Source: Escherichia phage vB_Eco_BCPEco_001. From it: 64,000 nucleotides of DNA. The position numbers were made by a program, and so were the translations under genes. The stretch lies in sequence record PV295200.1, one strand, 5' to 3'. Numbering within the stretch: the first letter of the stretch is position 1; each line of letters begins with the position of its first letter. The notes below the pieces were generated by a model. The model was not told the DNA's origin. It worked only from the letters and a program-made list of their open reading frames with translations, and did not search any database. Shown here one piece after another: positions 56,070 to 63,938 of this stretch.

Positions 56070-56142
56070 TGGGAATTAGCCAAGTTGGTAAGGCATAGCA
56101 CTTTGACTGCTAGATGCAAAGGTTCGAGTCCTTTATTCCCAG
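56070..56142 (+). tRNA. tRNA-Gln (anticodon UUG)
   Basis: Cloverleaf: acceptor TGGGAAT/ATTCCCA, anticodon loop CTTTGAC, T-loop TTCGAGT. Confidence 0.85.
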
Positions 56143-56143
56143 C

Positions 56144-56230
56144 GCGAGAATGGTCAAATTGGTAAAGACACAGCACTTAAAATGCTGCGGAATGATTTCC
56201 TTGTGGGTTCGAGTCCCACTTCTCGTACCA
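56144..56230 (+). tRNA. tRNA-Leu (anticodon UAA), long variable arm, CCA encoded
   Basis: Acceptor GCGAGAA/TTCTCGT, anticodon loop CTTAAAA, T-loop GGTTCGAGTCC, 3' ACCA. Confidence 0.85.
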
Positions 56231-56236
56231 AAGTTT

Positions 56237-56308
<72 letters not shown>

Positions 56309-56320
56309 AAATTTAATTTA

Positions 56321-56394
56321 CTTCGTGTAGCTCAGTTTGGTAGAGCGTCTGCTTTGGGAGCAGAATGTCGCAGGTTCAAATCCTGCCGCGGAGA
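56321..56394 (+). tRNA. tRNA-Pro (anticodon UGG)
   Basis: Anticodon stem-loop TCTGC-TTTGGGA-GCAGA, T-arm GCAGGTTCAAATCCTGC; acceptor with two G-U pairs. Confidence 0.8.
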
Positions 56395-56396
56395 CT

Positions 56397-56483
56397 GGAG
56401 GCGTGGCAGAGTGGTTTAATGCACCGGTCTTGAAAACCGGCAGTCGCTCCGGCGACTCATAGGTTCAAATCCTATCGCCTCCG
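56397..56483 (+). tRNA. tRNA-Ser (anticodon UGA), long variable arm
   Basis: Acceptor GGAGGCG/CGCCTCC, anticodon loop CTTGAAA, T-arm TAGGTTCAAATCCTA. Confidence 0.85.
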
Positions 56484-56490
56484 TAATTTC

Positions 56491-56563
56491 GCTGATTTAG
56501 CTCAGTAGGTAGAGCAACTCACTTGTAATGAGAAGGTCGGCGGTTCGATTCCGTCAATCAGCA
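56491..56563 (+). tRNA. tRNA-Thr (anticodon UGU)
   Basis: Acceptor GCTGATT/AATCAGC, anticodon loop CTTGTAA, T-arm GGCGGTTCGATTCCGTC. Confidence 0.85.
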
Positions 56564-56569
56564 TATCAA

Positions 56570-56641
56570 GGCCCTGTAGCTGGAAGGTTCAAGCAAGCGA
56601 CTCATAATCGCCAGATGGTGGTTCAATTCCACCCAGGGCCA
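56570..56641 (+). tRNA. tRNA-Ile (anticodon CAU, presumably lysidine-modified) or tRNA-Met
   Basis: Acceptor GGCCCTG/CAGGGCC, anticodon loop CTCATAA; T4 tRNA-Ile is known to carry a CAU anticodon. Confidence 0.8.
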
Positions 56642-56682
56642 TATTTTGAGAACATAAATACTCTTAGAAATAGGAGATATTT

Positions 56683-57348
56683 ATGTTCTATTACATTTAT
56701 AAAATAACAAATAAAATTAATAATAAAATCTATATAGGCGCTCATTCTACCGAAAATTTAGATGATGGATATATGGGTTCTGGTAAATTATTAAAAAGAG
56801 CCCAAGATAAGTATGGTATAGAAAATTTTTCTAAAGAAATATTAGAGTATTTTGACGATAAAACCTCTATGTTTGAGTCAGAAAAGAATATTGTGGCTGA
56901 AGAGTTTTTAAAGCGCCCTGATGTTTATAATTTGAAATTAGGTGGTGAAGGTGGTTGGGACCATTTAAACACTAAAGAATATTTGGATAAAAAGAAAGAA
57001 GCTTCCTTAAAAGGAGCTGCCGCTTTTAAAACCAGATTTGAGAACGACCCAGACCTTAAAGAAAAATATCGTAAAATGGGTTCAGAAAGGTTTAAACAGC
57101 TTTGGGATAATCCTAAGTATAGAGAGAAATTTTTAAATACTAAATCTTTCTTGGGTAAGACCCATACTCCTGAAACTATTAATAAAATGAAAGAATCTCA
57201 CGCCAGAAATAAACACCAACAAGGTGAAAAGAATTCCCAATTTGGTATGATGTGGATTCATTCATTAGATGAAAAAGTTTCTAAACGTATTAAGAAAACT
57301 GACCCAATTCCAGAAGGATGGTTTAAAGGTCGAAAAATGAAATTTTAA
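56683..57348 (+). CDS. segB: GIY-YIG homing endonuclease, SegB-like
   Basis: 221 aa, N-terminal YYIYKITNKINNKIYIGAH...DGYMGSG motif; embedded in tRNA cluster as T4 segB. Confidence 0.85.
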   Translation: MFYYIYKITNKINNKIYIGAHSTENLDDGYMGSGKLLKRAQDKYGIENFSKEILEYFDDKTSMFESEKNIVAEEFLKRPDVYNLKLGGEGGWDHLNTKEYLDKKKEASLKGAAAFKTRFENDPDLKEKYRKMGSERFKQLWDNPKYREKFLNTKSFLGKTHTPETINKMKESHARNKHQQGEKNSQFGMMWIHSLDEKVSKRIKKTDPIPEGWFKGRKMKF

Positions 57349-57351
57349 TTA

Positions 57352-57428
<77 letters not shown>

Positions 57429-60628: not shown

Positions 60629-61113
60629 TTTTAAAAACTCGCTGGTATGATTTAGATGATGGGGATGATGGCATTTCAGTTGATAGAGTTGACTGGAATG
60701 GTTGTTCCGAAGATATGAAAAATTTGTTGATTAGGGAGTTTAGAATGGGATATCAAGCAGCTAAGCCATTTACTGTAACAGATGATAAGTTCGTATGTAT
60801 TCAAAACGGTCGCGCTAAGTTAACGAACGCTGATTGGTTCACAGATAAAATTATGATTCTGTGGTATATTATTAGTCTTCCTGTGACATCATTCGTATTT
60901 TACTTTTTTATAAAAAATCCAATGGACAGAATAGGAGATTGGATTCTTTTAACCATACTTGTTAATATTTTTACAGCAGCAATATTATCTGGGATATGGT
61001 ACACGTTCATTGAAATGCCATGGCGGCTACGCAGACAACAAAAGATTTTTGATGAAAAGAAATACGTTCAAAATTTAAATAACTTTATCACTGAATGCAG
61101 GAAATTAAAATGA
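60625..61113 (+). CDS. small membrane protein (162 aa), paralog family
   Basis: Two hydrophobic helices, tail ending FITECRKLK. Confidence 0.5.
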   Translation: MILKTRWYDLDDGDDGISVDRVDWNGCSEDMKNLLIREFRMGYQAAKPFTVTDDKFVCIQNGRAKLTNADWFTDKIMILWYIISLPVTSFVFYFFIKNPMDRIGDWILLTILVNIFTAAILSGIWYTFIEMPWRLRRQQKIFDEKKYVQNLNNFITECRKLK

Positions 61114-61550
61114 AAACACTATCAGCTGGTATTATCTTTATGACAGAAGATAGAGATTTATTTATGGGTCGGGTTACTGGTTCTCGTAAGCCTGGAATGA
61201 TGGCACATCGCTGGGATATTCCAAAGGGCCGCGTAGAAAATTCTGATTTGAATGCACTGGAAGCTGCAAAAAGAGAATGCTTAGAAGAGACTGGCTTTAG
61301 CAATTATAATCCAGACCTTCTAGAAGACCTAGGTGTATTTAAATATTCTAGTAATAAAGACTTACAGTTATTTTATTATACGATTCCAGTAGAGCATGAG
61401 ATGTTTAGAAATTGTCGTTGCGAGTCTTATTTTGAAAATAAAGATGGTGTTATGATTCCAGAGATGGATGCTTTTGCTCTTATTCCTCGTATTCAGTGGC
61501 AATATGTGATGGGTCCTTCACTTTACCGAATAATGAACAACCTCTTTTAA
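61095..61550 (+). CDS. nudE: Nudix hydrolase NudE
   Basis: 151 aa, Nudix box GRVENSDLNALEAAKRECLEETGF, immediately upstream of e as in T4. Confidence 0.8.
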   Translation: MQEIKMKTLSAGIIFMTEDRDLFMGRVTGSRKPGMMAHRWDIPKGRVENSDLNALEAAKRECLEETGFSNYNPDLLEDLGVFKYSSNKDLQLFYYTIPVEHEMFRNCRCESYFENKDGVMIPEMDAFALIPRIQWQYVMGPSLYRIMNNLF

Positions 61551-62081
<531 letters not shown>

Positions 62082-62085
62082 AGTT

Positions 62086-62115
62086 GTTTACTTTCTCCTA
62101 GAATTGTGATAGTAT
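62086..62115 (+). promoter_or_regulatory. early promoter (denV)
   Basis: GTTTAC, 18-bp spacer, TAGTAT, about 25 bp upstream of denV ATG. Confidence 0.6.
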
Positions 62116-62140
62116 ATTCACAGTTACTTGGAGGGATAAA

Positions 62141-62557
62141 ATGACTCGTATTAATTTGACTTTAGTATCTGAACTTGCTGATCAACATTTAATCGCAGAA
62201 TACCGTGAATTGCCGCGTGTTTTTGGTATAGTTCGTAAGCATGTGGCAAACGGTAAGCGCGTTAAAGATTTTAAAATATCTTCTAAATTTATTTTAGGTT
62301 CTGGTCATGTTACTTTCTTTTACGATAAGTTAGAATTTTTGCGAAAGCGTCAATCGGACATTATAACGGAATGCTTAAAACGCGGGTTCAGTATAAAAGA
62401 TACTGAAGTTCCTGACATCAGCGATATTCCAGCAGAATGGAAAAATGATTATAACCCATGCAAATCGGCTATTAAATTGAGTCAACAACGACTCGATGAA
62501 AAAATTTTAATGAAGCCACACTGGTATAAATACTACGGCAAAAATATTTACATTTAA
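62141..62557 (+). CDS. denV: endonuclease V, pyrimidine dimer DNA glycosylase
   Basis: 138 aa, [28 protein letters not shown]...WYKYYGK matches recalled T4 EndoV; early promoter upstream. Confidence 0.9.
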
Positions 62558-62703
62558 ATAACATGGGAATAACCTGGACCTCATGATTCTGTGAGGGATT
62601 CCCGCCAACCTGTAATAAGGTCGAGCCCAAGTGCGGTAATGGGTAAATACAGAAATGGACAATTCATGCGCCATGGAATGGCCCAAACCTAGAGAGAACA
62701 AAA

Positions 62704-63243
62704 ATGAGAACATTTTTAACTGGTCCTTATCTATCCCTGATGAATGCTTTTACACACCATTCTGATGCTAGAGTAGAAGAAATTTGTAAAAACGATTATA
62801 TCCTATCATTTGAAGACTTACTTAAACAGTATTGCACACTTCGACTAGATGGTGGACGTCAATCCGGTAAATCAATTGCTGTGACTAACTTTGCTGCTAA
62901 TTGGTTGTATGATGGCGGAACAGTTATTGTTCTTTCTAATACTTCAGCTTACGCTAAAATTTCTGCAAATAACATCAAAAAGGAATTTTCGCGTTATTCT
63001 AATGATGATATACGTTTTCGTTTATTTACTGATTCTGTACGCAGTTTTATTGGTAATAAAGGAAGCAAGTTCAGAGGTTTATCGCTTTCGCGAATTTTGT
63101 ATATAATTGATGAGCCTGTCAAATCTCCTGATATGGATAAGATTTATGATGCTCATATTGACACTGTACAGTACTGCTGCAATAGTAAATGCTGCATTGG
63201 CGGTATTACTCGTCCGCAGTTTTTCGTAATTGGAATGCAATGA
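62704..63243 (+). CDS. hypothetical protein with P-loop-like motif (179 aa)
   Basis: GGRQSGKS Walker-A-like motif; Cys-rich C-terminus CCNSKCC. Confidence 0.5.
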   Translation: MRTFLTGPYLSLMNAFTHHSDARVEEICKNDYILSFEDLLKQYCTLRLDGGRQSGKSIAVTNFAANWLYDGGTVIVLSNTSAYAKISANNIKKEFSRYSNDDIRFRLFTDSVRSFIGNKGSKFRGLSLSRILYIIDEPVKSPDMDKIYDAHIDTVQYCCNSKCCIGGITRPQFFVIGMQ

Positions 63244-63569
63244 TGACAGATACGCAACTTTTCGAATATCTTTATTTTTCGCCAAAAACTATTAAAAATA
63301 AATTGGTGAATCATTTTGAAATTTTGGCAAATAACAACGTCTTGAGCGAATTTTATCCCAAGCAATACAAATTACAAAAAGGTGTATTCAAAGGATGCAG
63401 AGTTTTGTGCACTGCTCCTAATGCAAGATTAATGAATAAAATTCCATATTTTACCATGGAATTTATTGATGGACCATTTAAAGGATTAATTACTCAAAGT
63501 TTAATGGCATATGATTCTGAGCCATTTTTAATTAAAGAACAATCTTGGATAAAATTATTTTCTAATTGA
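63240..63569 (+). CDS. hypothetical protein (about 109 aa)
   Basis: Start taken at ATG 63240 overlapping upstream stop (ATGA); track ORF from 63189 overlaps the upstream gene. Confidence 0.45.
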   Translation: MMTDTQLFEYLYFSPKTIKNKLVNHFEILANNNVLSEFYPKQYKLQKGVFKGCRVLCTAPNARLMNKIPYFTMEFIDGPFKGLITQSLMAYDSEPFLIKEQSWIKLFSN

Positions 63570-63575
63570 GGTTAT

Positions 63576-63938
63576 ATGAAAGCATATCAAATTCTTGAAG
63601 GCACACATAAAGGTACTATTTATTTTGAAGATGGTATTCAAGCACGAATTATTGTCTCTAAAACCTTTAAAGAGGACTCTTTTGTAGACCCAGAAATTTT
63701 CTATGGTTTGCATGCCCGTGAAATTGAAATTGAGCAACAGCCTACAGTTAAAATTGAAGGTGGTCAACACCTGAACGTTAACGTTCTGCGTCGTGAAACT
63801 CTGGAAGATGCAGTTAAGCATCCGGAAAAATATCCGCAGCTGACCATCCGTGTATCCGGTTATGCAGTTCGCTTTAACTCTCTGACTCCGGAACAGCAGC
63901 GCGACGTTATCGCTCGTACCTTTACCGAGAGTTTGTAA
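63576..63938 (+). CDS. autonomous glycyl radical cofactor, GrcA/YfiD-like (T4 Y06I-like)
   Basis: C-terminal 60 aa [60 protein letters not shown] is the glycyl-radical domain (RVSGY glycine motif). Confidence 0.85.

Follow-up and report, generated by a model that had tools for sequence, protein, structure and literature searches.

The vs.8-vs.7 gene pair of Escherichia phage vB_Eco_BCPEco_001 may encode a minimal ASCE-type ATPase and its partner behind a conserved pseudoknotted RNA

What do the two overlapping genes downstream of denV in Escherichia phage vB_Eco_BCPEco_001 encode, and what is the conserved sequence that precedes them? In the window, the 64,000-nucleotide stretch of record PV295200.1 analyzed here, the list of open reading frames (ORFs) gives two plus-strand ORFs at this locus, one of 179 aa with an ATG start (62704 to 63243) and one of 109 aa (63240 to 63569). 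As stated in a preliminary description, they follow denV (62141 to 62557), which lies directly 5' of the region and is separated from the first ORF by a 146-nt spacer. That description had matched neither product to a recognized protein, which proved to be wrong, since by sequence identity both have named T4 orthologues, the first being vs.8 (NP_049732, UniProt P13318; 96% identity over T4 residues 41 to 219) and the second vs.7 (NP_049731; 97% identity). The order denV-RNA-vs.8-vs.7-vs.6, in which vs.6 is GrcA-like and the RNA is the spacer element discussed below, is conserved, and vs.8 also lies between denV and vs.7/vs.6 in T4, SsoM_113, RB69 and SonariX. T4 and the window phage share the denV-vs.8-vs.7-vs.6 order together with an ATGA overlap, whereas ipII and ipIII, located between e and denV in T4, are absent from the window phage.

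The T4 genome is among the most studied, and to our knowledge about 130 of its genes still have no function. vs.8 and vs.7 are already named and conserved T4 genes for which we found no recorded function: UniProt titles P13318 [quoted passage not shown], both PHROG families are annotated "unknown function", and a literature search covering gene names, accession numbers and the sequence of the RNA core yielded no relevant paper. The earlier view of the pair as early-region accessory genes of unassigned function is supported; of the outcome that was to refute it, well-characterized conserved T4 genes, conservation and naming were found but no characterization. The profile and structure-prediction searches proposed at that stage recovered the PHROG families of both genes but no relatives in Pfam, NCBIfam or the PDB: scans of vs.8 and vs.7 against Pfam (a set without PF26834), NCBIfam and PADLOC gave nothing above threshold, and PDB sequence-profile searches with both families found no relative.

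The vs.8 orthologue matches PHROG 1488 with E=4.4e-80 (residues 3 to 179 on profile positions 2 to 177 of 177). The Walker-A-like GGRQSGKS already pointed out in the first ORF is real; it spans residues 50 to 57 (plus strand, 62851 to 62874), and D49-G50-G51-R52-Q53-S54-G55-K56 is invariant across 18 relatives, down to 41% identity, with either S or T at residue 57. A Walker B strand, ILYIIDEP, occupies residues 131 to 138 (63094 to 63117), where the 18 sequences agree fully at L132, I134, I135, E137 and P138 and at least 90% of them keep D136, and residues 131 to 136 are modeled as a β strand by AlphaFold2. This segment (L132-Y-I-I-D136-E137-P138) does not appear in the preliminary description. 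Because Walker A is invariant and Walker B nearly so, the P-loop is genuine and not a chance match. R113 and R124 are also conserved, the C-terminal strand FFVIGxQ carries an invariant Gln, and the N-terminal helix (Y9-F16) is invariant as well.

The AlphaFold2 model of vs.8 (pLDDT 82.5, pTM 0.83) was compared with the PDB by Foldseek, and the matches were the ATPase cores of helicases, RecD, the phi29 packaging motor, F1 and UvsW (prob 0.96 to 1.0, TM 0.40 to 0.48), which are generic similarities (TM<=0.48 to any solved structure) that indicate no substrate. In BFVD, many uncharacterized phage proteins of 140 to 175 aa share the predicted fold. By its motifs and its model, vs.8 is predicted to be a minimal single-domain P-loop NTPase of the ASCE type, with a RecA/helicase/terminase-like fold. 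Its family is narrow and, as far as sequence searches reach, phage-restricted; an HMM search of 1.84 billion representatives returned only 50 proteins, all small and unannotated. Terminase large subunits and FtsK/HerA NTPases share with vs.8 the Walker A/B arrangement and weak profile and fold matches, the latter including the phi29 packaging ATPase and large terminases. The profile similarity to the terminase large-subunit ATPase is weak (phrog_2, 9.3e-6), Pfam Terminase_6N scores 12.6 bits, under its 22-bit cut-off, and the only PADLOC match is a marginal one to HerA (0.007). Unlike terminases, vs.8 falls below every curated threshold and is a single 179-aa domain without a C-terminal nuclease or an oligomerization domain; moreover, it is an early gene, while terminase is a late packaging gene.

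The vs.7 orthologue (plus strand, 63240 to 63569) matches PHROG 2049 over its full length (E=2.8e-54), and the precomputed Pfam accession PF26834.1 is attached to all 46 of 46 vs.7 homologues. Its AlphaFold2 model is confident (pLDDT 90.3) and predicts two N-terminal helices followed by a small β-barrel that carries G-P-F-K-G-type motifs. The C-terminal barrel superimposes over about 50 residues on KOW/SH3 barrels (NusG/Spt5 KOW, KIN17, ribosomal L24/L26), with Foldseek probabilities up to 1.0 but E values of 0.027 to 0.3 and TM scores of only about 0.3 to 0.35. The matches to the KOW/SH3-like folds of KIN17, Spt5 KOW5 and NusG are all weak (E>=0.027), and the best KOW match reaches E=0.027 and TM 0.35 over about 50 aligned residues. 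In contrast to KOW proteins, vs.7 has no NGN domain and no KOW match at the sequence level (none to the Pfam KOW profile at E<=1 in any of 38 family members), and it has a Pfam accession of its own, PF26834. A KOW/SH3-like fold of vs.7 is thus only weakly indicated by the model.

The coupling of the two ORFs by an ATGA overlap, as described earlier, was found as stated, the ATG of vs.7 (63240 to 63242) overlapping the TGA of vs.8 (63241 to 63243) within the plus-strand tetranucleotide at 63240 to 63243. The junction reads CAATGATG or CAATAATG at 13 of 13 divergent loci inspected, the ends of the vs.8 and vs.7 matches coincide in the tblastn table, and vs.7 lies directly 3' of vs.8 in most T4-like loci. 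Because this stop/start overlap is kept down to about 35% identity, the two proteins are probably made and used as a pair. One distant vs.8 relative was found with neither a vs.7 partner nor the RNA, and hence vs.8, vs.7 and the RNA are separable parts.

We propose that vs.8 would bind and hydrolyze NTP. Through translational coupling vs.7 would be made in a fixed ratio to it, serving as a partner or adaptor that probably provides the contact with nucleic acid or with a host protein. As a pair they would be an early, dispensable accessory ATPase that works on a nucleic acid or nucleoprotein target during host takeover. The whole account, in which vs.8/vs.7 orthologues encode a minimal ASCE ATPase with a coupled partner and the RNA leader is a separate element, has in our judgment an even chance of being right. 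For the proteins it adds a motif- and fold-level description to two T4 genes that had no assigned function, and little else changes.

That the pair serves as a counter-defense device instead of taking part in phage nucleic acid transactions seems unlikely, if still worth weighing; it could be a terminase-ATPase-like decoy or inhibitor of an immune sensor, or an ATPase that disables a defense complex. Both genes belong to the early "vs" cluster, a plastic region whose gene content varies between phages and which also contains vs.4, for which a role as a cyclic-nucleotide sponge of the Acb2 family has been reported. The terminase ATPase is the sole profile similarity of vs.8 above noise, and the narrow, phage-restricted family of 50 representatives would also suit such a role. 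However, a passive decoy needs no strictly conserved Walker A and Walker B catalytic residues, and PADLOC matched nothing beyond the marginal HerA.

The denV-vs.8 spacer contains a conserved pseudoknotted RNA on the plus strand (62565 to 62652), identified by covariance models and covariation; its T4 counterpart is on the minus strand at about 64,800 to 64,910. It lies shortly upstream of the interval covered by the preliminary description, which had missed it. Its elements are helix P1 (62565-70/62598-603, GGGAAU/AUUCCC), hairpin P2 (62579-83/62592-96), helix P3 (62604-07/62640,62642-44, with G62641 bulged), helix P4 (62608-11/62618-21, loop GUAAUA), the joining segment CGA (62622-24), helix P5 (62625-26/62633-34), the joining segment GGUAA (62635-39) and a 3-bp pseudoknot between CUG (62574-76) and CAG (62650-52). 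Further downstream, the alignment shows a second invariant GGA (62657-59), and a hairpin GCCAU-GGA-AUGGC (62670 to 62682), found only in T4-like phages, separates the RNA core from the AGAGAG ribosome-binding site of vs.8 (62691-96); RNAalifold pairs its stem in 18 to 20 of 20 sequences, with no covariation.

Covariance model R1 matches 62600 to 62649 with 69.2 bits and R2 matches 62559 to 62661 with 64.9 bits. The pair counts are to be read with alignments A9 and A10 having been fitted to the model structure, which inflates them for all helices but the pseudoknot: in 30 sequences every P3 pair is formed (100%), with 3 to 5 pair types per pair, and the covariation score was reached by 0 of 500 shuffles; the pseudoknot pairs 19-117, 20-116 and 21-115 are likewise formed throughout (100%) and show up to 4 pair types; the share of paired cells is 93.3% in 37 sequences drawn from at least 8 lineages (77.5% in shuffles, 20 to 46% in slid controls) and 94.6% in an independent metagenome set. 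As judged by this strong covariation, the RNA combines a pseudoknot with an almost invariant three-way-junction core, and the G-U pairs place it on the plus strand. The thermodynamic stability of the window copy is no greater than that of shuffled sequence (z=0.24), so this criterion is uninformative. For P5, the "CGA + GC/GC" model is preferred because Vibrio F88, L164, L165 and L197 pair only there, and the alternative helix from RNAalifold (C-G, G-C, A.G, G-Y, C-G) is disfavored. Pairing of the P3 3' strand with the CCC past the 3' hairpin was inconsistent on inspection, fitting about 7 of 13 lineages.

We found the RNA in 1,117 of 50,697 phage records, its carriers being T4-like, rV5-like, Vibrio and 45-kb coliphages. 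In the window, R1 matches only the copy upstream of vs.8, and the tRNA cluster at 56070 to 57428 has no match. In T4-like phages the RNA is always just 5' of the vs.8 operon, while its copies in other phages are found within or close to tRNA clusters and have promoter-like and terminator-like sites on either side. What follows on the 3' side differs completely by lineage: vs.8, phrog_3330, an HNH endonuclease, an internal head protein or no ORF. Enterobacter phages carry two tandem copies, whereas the model gives one copy per locus in the 46-kb phages, in which no tandem copies were found despite repeated flanks. The RB69 copy was judged to have no promoter directly upstream, because the TATAAT there takes in the stop codon that ends the ORF before it, and the promoter scan was empty. 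Occurrence in bacterial and archaeal genomes (596 Gb) was likewise rejected, with 115 pattern matches against about 280 expected by chance; only 1 of the 115 has the downstream GGUAA, and it scores 28 bits. Mimicry of a host RNA was rejected at the sequence level, since a blastn search of 5,426 E. coli genomes found nothing.

Rfam 15 returned only tRNAs and chance matches (E<=10 for the window, E<=5 for seven diverse copies). About 8,500 candidate structured RNAs from IMG/VR have been catalogued (PMC10690425), and the motif may be among them as an unnamed entry. Among known RNAs, the nested double-pseudoknot topology is shared with HDV-like ribozymes, theta ribozymes included: a 5' helix, a pseudoknot strand, a hairpin, the helix return, a second domain and the pseudoknot return. 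Both are also associated with phages and tRNA genes, theta ribozymes being known for their tRNA association. Conservation, however, runs opposite to that of HDV: the counterpart of the near-invariant three-way junction is P4, which HDV can dispense with, whereas the joining region matching the catalytic-C site is variable (0 to 9 nt), and the loop of the corresponding hairpin is free to vary and even holds an inserted hairpin. Membership in the HDV-like class was rejected, as the L3/P1.1 core and the catalytic C of J4/2 are not conserved, and no Rfam HDV family matched. The T4 gene 32 mRNA pseudoknot, HK022 put and the T4 stable RNAs C/D are likewise structured and located at early-message 5' ends or next to phage tRNA genes, and a protein- or RNA polymerase-binding role would be possible for them and for the leader RNA alike, but they show no sequence or model similarity to it.

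We consider the RNA to be a separate functional element, whose invariant junction core would most simply be a conserved binding surface for a protein or other macromolecule. In T4-like phages it would form the 5' leader of the vs.8-vs.7 message, while in other lineages it apparently stands alone beside tRNA genes; because of this stand-alone position, the role of a dedicated vs.8 sensor is unlikely. The expression of vs.8/vs.7 may still be influenced by the RNA, or their products may bind it. A bolder and tentative possibility is that it represents an unrecognized class of trans-acting phage noncoding RNA, acting as a put-like modifier of RNA polymerase, as a defense or housekeeping decoy for a tRNA- or RNA-directed host factor, or as a ribonucleoprotein partner of vs.8/vs.7. 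The RNA matters more than the ORFs, as an element of about 90 nt in more than 1,000 phages of several families that has no Rfam family and has been annotated as protein. Several carriers (T4, RB69 and rV5-like phages) are genetically tractable, so that binding partners could be quickly accessible. If the RNA targets host RNA polymerase, translation/tRNA biology or defense, it would open a new phage-host interface; if it merely tunes vs.8/vs.7 expression, it would still offer a handle on the function of these genes.

A metabolite-sensing riboswitch governing translation of vs.8-vs.7-vs.6 is improbable. The anatomy, with a pseudoknot and covarying outer helices around a highly conserved junction core, is typical of aptamers, the T4-like copies always precede the vs.8 operon and are followed by a conserved hairpin upstream of the Shine-Dalgarno sequence, and tandem copies such as those of the Enterobacter phages also occur in some riboswitches. 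Against this, the genes downstream, where present, are of unrelated kinds in the different lineages, copies outside the T4-like phages sit in or near tRNA clusters between promoter-like and terminator-like sites, and inspection of the alignment found no conserved alternative pairing to the Shine-Dalgarno sequence.

For the proteins, it is slightly less probable still that vs.8 is a small-molecule or nucleotide kinase of nucleotide metabolism, with vs.7 an unrelated neighbor. Several nucleotide-metabolism enzymes are encoded in T4 early regions, 179 aa with a Walker A motif fit small P-loop kinases, and no match names a macromolecular substrate. Yet vs.8 has an hhhhDE Walker B with an invariant Glu followed by a C-terminal sensor-like strand, every fold and profile similarity is to ASCE motors (helicases, terminase, HerA, F1) and none to kinases, the Pfam and NCBIfam scans gave no kinase match, and the conserved vs.8/vs.7 overlap argues for joint action. 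The preliminary guess of a role in nucleotide metabolism has become less likely because the motifs and predicted fold are of the ASCE (helicase/terminase/RecA-like) and not the kinase type, and a small-molecule nucleotide-metabolism enzyme is an unlikely identity for vs.8/vs.7.

The ASCE-type vs.8 is also shorter than its T4 annotation. T4 RefSeq gives vs.8 as CDS 64253-64912, a 219-aa protein with the N terminus MRDSRQPVIRSS..., and thereby reads the RNA region as a 40-aa N-terminal extension. In the window, the extension frame opens with GTG, is closed by a TAG after 33 codons and, owing to a 7-nt indel, does not share the frame of vs.8. The vs.8 homologues align from an M-R/K-T-F start, and RB69-type, rV5-type and other copies have only the RNA core in common, keeping base pairs and not codons. 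The true start is the ATG of MRTFLTG at 62704, which corrects the vs.8 start codon, and the 40 preceding codons of T4 RefSeq are the conserved pseudoknotted RNA. That the spacer is protein-coding as in T4, with a 219-aa vs.8 and nucleotide conservation due to coding, is hardly credible: the RefSeq CDS and the 189- to 196-aa forms given by several gene callers speak for it, but the TAG and the indel in the window frame contradict it, as do the base pairs retained in other lineages, the M-R/K-T-F start of homologues and the dominance of G-U/G-C and fully compensatory changes. If the trans-acting reading of the RNA is true, an RNA class lay hidden in the T4 reference inside a misannotated CDS.

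The Cys-rich tail remarked on earlier in vs.8, CCNSKCCIGG (residues 158 to 167; plus strand, 63175 to 63204), is present but is not a conserved family feature. It is confined to close Tequatrovirus relatives, and in homologues below about 65% identity the tail cysteines are few, absent or shifted (alignment of 18 sequences). Pfam gave only a sub-threshold conotoxin match for this segment (18.2 bits, cut-off 23.2), and a conserved metal-binding or disulfide motif was rejected, the cysteines not being kept across the family and the pLDDT being low. The sole stretch of the vs.8 model with pLDDT<50, residues 161 to 167, falls inside this lineage-specific segment, which is probably a loop.

The reading frames at 62704-63243 and 63240-63569 (both +) are the T4 genes vs.8 and vs.7. 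The tblastn comparison gave 96% identity of the first to T4 vs.8 (RefSeq residues 41-219) and 97% of the second to T4 vs.7, and both proteins had full-length PHROG matches (phrog_1488, 4.4e-80, and phrog_2049, 2.8e-54; each 'unknown function'). Both are thus conserved T4 genes that already have names, and the view of the preliminary description that neither matches a recognised protein no longer holds. The two ORFs themselves, their ATGA overlap (ATG 63240-63242, TGA 63241-63243) and the GGRQSGKS motif (vs.8 residues 50-57), all reported there, were confirmed. It had named as a refutation the finding that they are well-characterised T4 genes; conserved and named they are, but characterisation was found neither in databases nor in full-text literature searches, which returned nothing relevant on vs.8 or vs.7, and UniProt calls T4 vs.8 'Uncharacterized 25.0 kDa protein in regB-denV intergenic region'. 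For both proteins, Pfam gave no family over threshold, NCBIfam no family and the PDB sequence search no relative; the profile and structure searches proposed earlier provided the PHROG matches and fold models, but only generic or weak structural neighbours. By themselves, both ORFs are ordinary, being known T4 genes that lack an assigned function. One annotated relative labels both 'Vs.8/Vs.7 conserved hypothetical protein'. Some GenBank records name homologues of vs.8 or vs.7 'endoribonuclease' (proteins P0005, P0006, P0029; OP870147.1), a name that none of our results support and that may have spilled over from regB close by. The 90%-identity protein cluster of P0001 (vs.8) contains vs.7 too, though the sequences are unrelated and overlap only at the ATGA; the two were probably chained through ORFs that are fused or mis-called in certain assemblies.

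Over its last 1.9 kb, the window matches Shigella phages SHFML-11 and vB_Shso_BCPShso_001 at 100% identity and hundreds of other Tequatrovirus genomes at 97-98%. On the + strand, nudE (61095-61550), the lysozyme gene e (61587-62081) and denV (62141-62557) are followed by vs.8, vs.7 and the GrcA-like glycyl-radical gene vs.6 (63576-63938). The corresponding strand of T4 reads e, ipIII, ipII, denV, vs.8, vs.7, vs.6; here denV comes directly after e (spacer 62082-62140), and ipIII and ipII (T4 locus L001 4857-6003) are absent. The product of vs.6, third gene in the conserved vs.8-vs.7-vs.6 run, is a 120-aa autonomous glycyl-radical protein of GrcA/YfiD type (Pfam Gly_radical, 2.5e-18).

By comparing 18 full-length vs.8 relatives with identities down to 41%, we found that the Walker A sequence D49-G-G-R-Q-S-G-K56 is unchanged and followed by S or T. 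R113, R124-G125 and, in the Walker B region, L132, I134, I135, E137 and P138 are also invariant (D136 nearly so), as are the N-terminal helix Y9-L10-x-L12-M13-x-A15-F16 and the C-terminal F173 and G177-x-Q179, with F174 and V175 nearly invariant. AlphaFold2 (pLDDT 82.5, pTM 0.83) models the protein as a five-stranded alpha/beta domain, in which strand 131-136 carries Walker B. Both Walker motifs are thus genuine. The Cys-rich tail noted earlier does exist in close relatives, but it is confined to them in the 18-sequence comparison and forms the only low-confidence part of the model, so that it is not conserved and was rejected as a functional motif. Foldseek matched the model in the PDB only to generic ASCE ATPase cores (SLFN11 helicase domain, RecD/RecD2, phi29 packaging ATPase, UvsW and F1; TM<=0.48), and in BFVD to many uncharacterised 140-175-aa proteins from large phages that share its fold. 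Profile similarity rose above noise only for the terminase large-subunit ATPase (phrog_2, 9.3e-6) and, marginally, HerA; Pfam Terminase_6N scored 12.6 bits, below its 22-bit cut-off. The family is narrow: searched exhaustively by HMM, 1.84 billion representatives yielded only 50 proteins. A distant relative, P0060 (166 aa; locus L169, 3001-3501), lies in a T4-like contig between the topoisomerase gp39 genes and rIIA, a locus with neither a vs.7 partner nor the RNA motif described below.

An iterated search retrieved 46 vs.7 homologues, all with the precomputed Pfam accession PF26834.1, whose model is missing from the Pfam copy used for our local scans. They share the core Y-x-F-x-x-G-P-F-K-G ... 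A-P ... P-x-F-x-x-E-F-I-x-G-P-x-K-G-x-I-x-x-S-L-x-x-Y-D, while the N-terminal ~40 residues are variable or absent. The vs.7 model (pLDDT 90.3) shows two helices and then a small beta-barrel; its best neighbours are KOW/SH3-like barrels (KIN17, Spt5 KOW5, NusG), all weak (E>=0.027, TM ~0.35), and PDB sequence-profile and Pfam searches lent a KOW assignment no sequence-level support. The matches to vs.8 and vs.7 abut in almost every T4-like locus (tblastn), and in 13/13 divergent loci inspected a vs.7-type gene has its start overlapping the stop of vs.8, with junctions …GGA ATG CAA TGA TG… or …CAA TAA TG…. The conservation of this overlap points to co-translation of the two genes, and their translational coupling is itself a conserved feature. 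An in-frame ATG at 63189, giving a 126-aa vs.7, was rejected, as homologues and the conserved overlap place the real start at 63240. The overlap also suggests that vs.8 and vs.7 act jointly, and we infer that vs.8 works together with vs.7 as an active NTPase directed at a macromolecular target, rather than as a nucleotide-metabolism enzyme, one of the roles first proposed.

In T4 RefSeq, vs.8 starts 120 nt farther upstream and encodes 219 aa. This upstream stretch is nearly identical between T4 and the window, exceeding the conservation of the adjoining denV 3' end, but the extension frame of the window starts with GTG in place of ATG, contains an in-frame TAG and carries a 7-nt deletion, which close it and shift it out of the vs.8 register. 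A coding extension was rejected on these grounds and because a structured RNA occupies the region, and the start at 62704 is the correct one. The spacer 62558-62703 corresponds to T4 NC_000866 about 64,793-64,938 (minus strand). In T4 RefSeq and many GenBank records, vs.8 reaches 10-40 codons into the RNA (189-, 195-, 196- and 219-aa forms), and these N-termini look like gene-caller artefacts.

The RNA (62565-62652, +) is laid out as P1, J1/2, a P2 hairpin of variable length, P1', P3, P4 (ACCU-GURANA-AGGU), CGA, P5 (a short hairpin with variable loop), GGUAA, P3' with a purine bulge after its first pair, and a 3' strand that pairs back to J1/2 as a pseudoknot. The three-way-junction core is almost invariant, while the peripheral helices alter their sequence and retain pairing. 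In a core alignment of 30 distinct sequences, each of the three inner P3 pairs forms in 100% of them, through 3-5 pair types, and P5 uses C-G, U-A and G-C; 0/500 shuffles reached the covariation score, and slid controls paired in 28-40% of cells. In a MAFFT alignment of 20 RB69- and Enterobacter-type copies, fitted to no structure, the pseudoknot pairs (19-117, 20-116, 21-115) form in 100% of copies, as CG/AU/UA/GC and GC/CG, and P1 pair 14-61 occurs as GC, CG and AU. When 37 copies from at least eight lineages were aligned with guidance from the model, 93.3% of cells were paired (mean of shuffles, 77.5%); 43 independent metagenomic copies, likewise aligned, had 94.6% and add compensatory changes in P2 (locus L194), P5 (L188, L197) and, in the second L161 copy, P4 (GCCU/AGGC). 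Judged by its G-U pairs, the RNA lies on the + strand, like the genes. We conclude that a conserved pseudoknotted RNA exists here, whose core would offer a binding surface for a conserved partner. Its nested double pseudoknot resembles HDV-like ribozymes; however, what is conserved here is the counterpart of the dispensable P4 domain of HDV, while the stretch equivalent to the catalytic-cytosine site is variable, so that the RNA was not classed among them.

Neither the window copy (E<=10) nor seven diverse copies (E<=5) matched any Rfam 15 family, and most phage records leave the site unannotated; the RNA may already be an unnamed entry of the IMG/VR candidate-RNA catalogue (PMC10690425). The denV-vs.8 spacer matched 1,117 phage records (blastn), and a 40-45-nt core is kept at 86-95% identity in unrelated phages, namely rV5-like Vequintavirinae, Vibrio phage F88, the 45-kb coliphages Ivi and EcoPhCCP1, and Enterobacter phage SonariX (a 249-kb partial genome record with T4-like e-denV-vs.8-vs.7 at this site). 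Pattern scans of IMG/VR and metagenomes added further lineages. No match was found in 5,426 E. coli genomes, and 596 Gb of bacterial and archaeal genomes gave 115 pattern matches versus about 280 expected by chance; of the 115, only one has the rest of the motif (28 bits). Low-scoring matches to the RNA models (26-28 bits) outside enterobacterial phages, in a Dehalococcoidales MAG contig (L085 3943-3996) and, at GC 31%, in L183 (5862-5941, from an 871-kb contig) and L204 (11791-11870), may be distant members or chance. The window has one copy. Enterobacter T4-like phages have two in tandem before vs.8 (L161 5077-5309, minus strand; L163 8962-9195; L209 304-537), the first with P3 re-paired as CUGGU/A(G)CCAG and the second of RB69 type, the L161 version being that with the altered P4.

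Among enterobacterial T4-like phages, the RNA is invariably found 5' of vs.8, directly or across an internal-head-protein gene (phrog_2667 in L011, L013 and L019), and in RB69 it does so although three extra ORFs part it from denV. In the interval to the vs.8 Shine-Dalgarno there is a hairpin, specific to T4-like phages, whose loop is GGA; a second GGA in this interval is invariant too. Outside the T4-like phages, what follows the RNA is an unrelated gene or none, and the RNA shares its strand with tRNA genes, lying inside clusters or 200-600 nt upstream. These varied contexts argue that the element can function alone and is not a sensor dedicated to one gene class; at this locus it may regulate vs.8/vs.7, be bound by both proteins, or merely adjoin them. 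In FV3 promoter-like sites flank it; a weak terminator-like hairpin comes immediately 3', and the gene after it has a strong promoter-like site. In Ivi there is a stem-U9 terminator about 120 nt further 3'. Copies beside tRNA clusters include L003 (2466-2559, tRNAs from 3117), L157, L159, L162, L165, L166, L028 and L030, from rV5-like phages, 46-kb phages and others; the window's own cluster (56070-57428) is on the same strand, 5 kb upstream. In rV5-like phages, the gene 3' of the RNA (FV3_00068, L003 2679-3020; homologues in L022, L028, L030 and L035) encodes a 113-aa phrog_3330 protein of unknown function with an Arg-rich KKRRRRGRP, which we take to resemble the arginine-rich RNA-binding motifs of N-type antiterminators.
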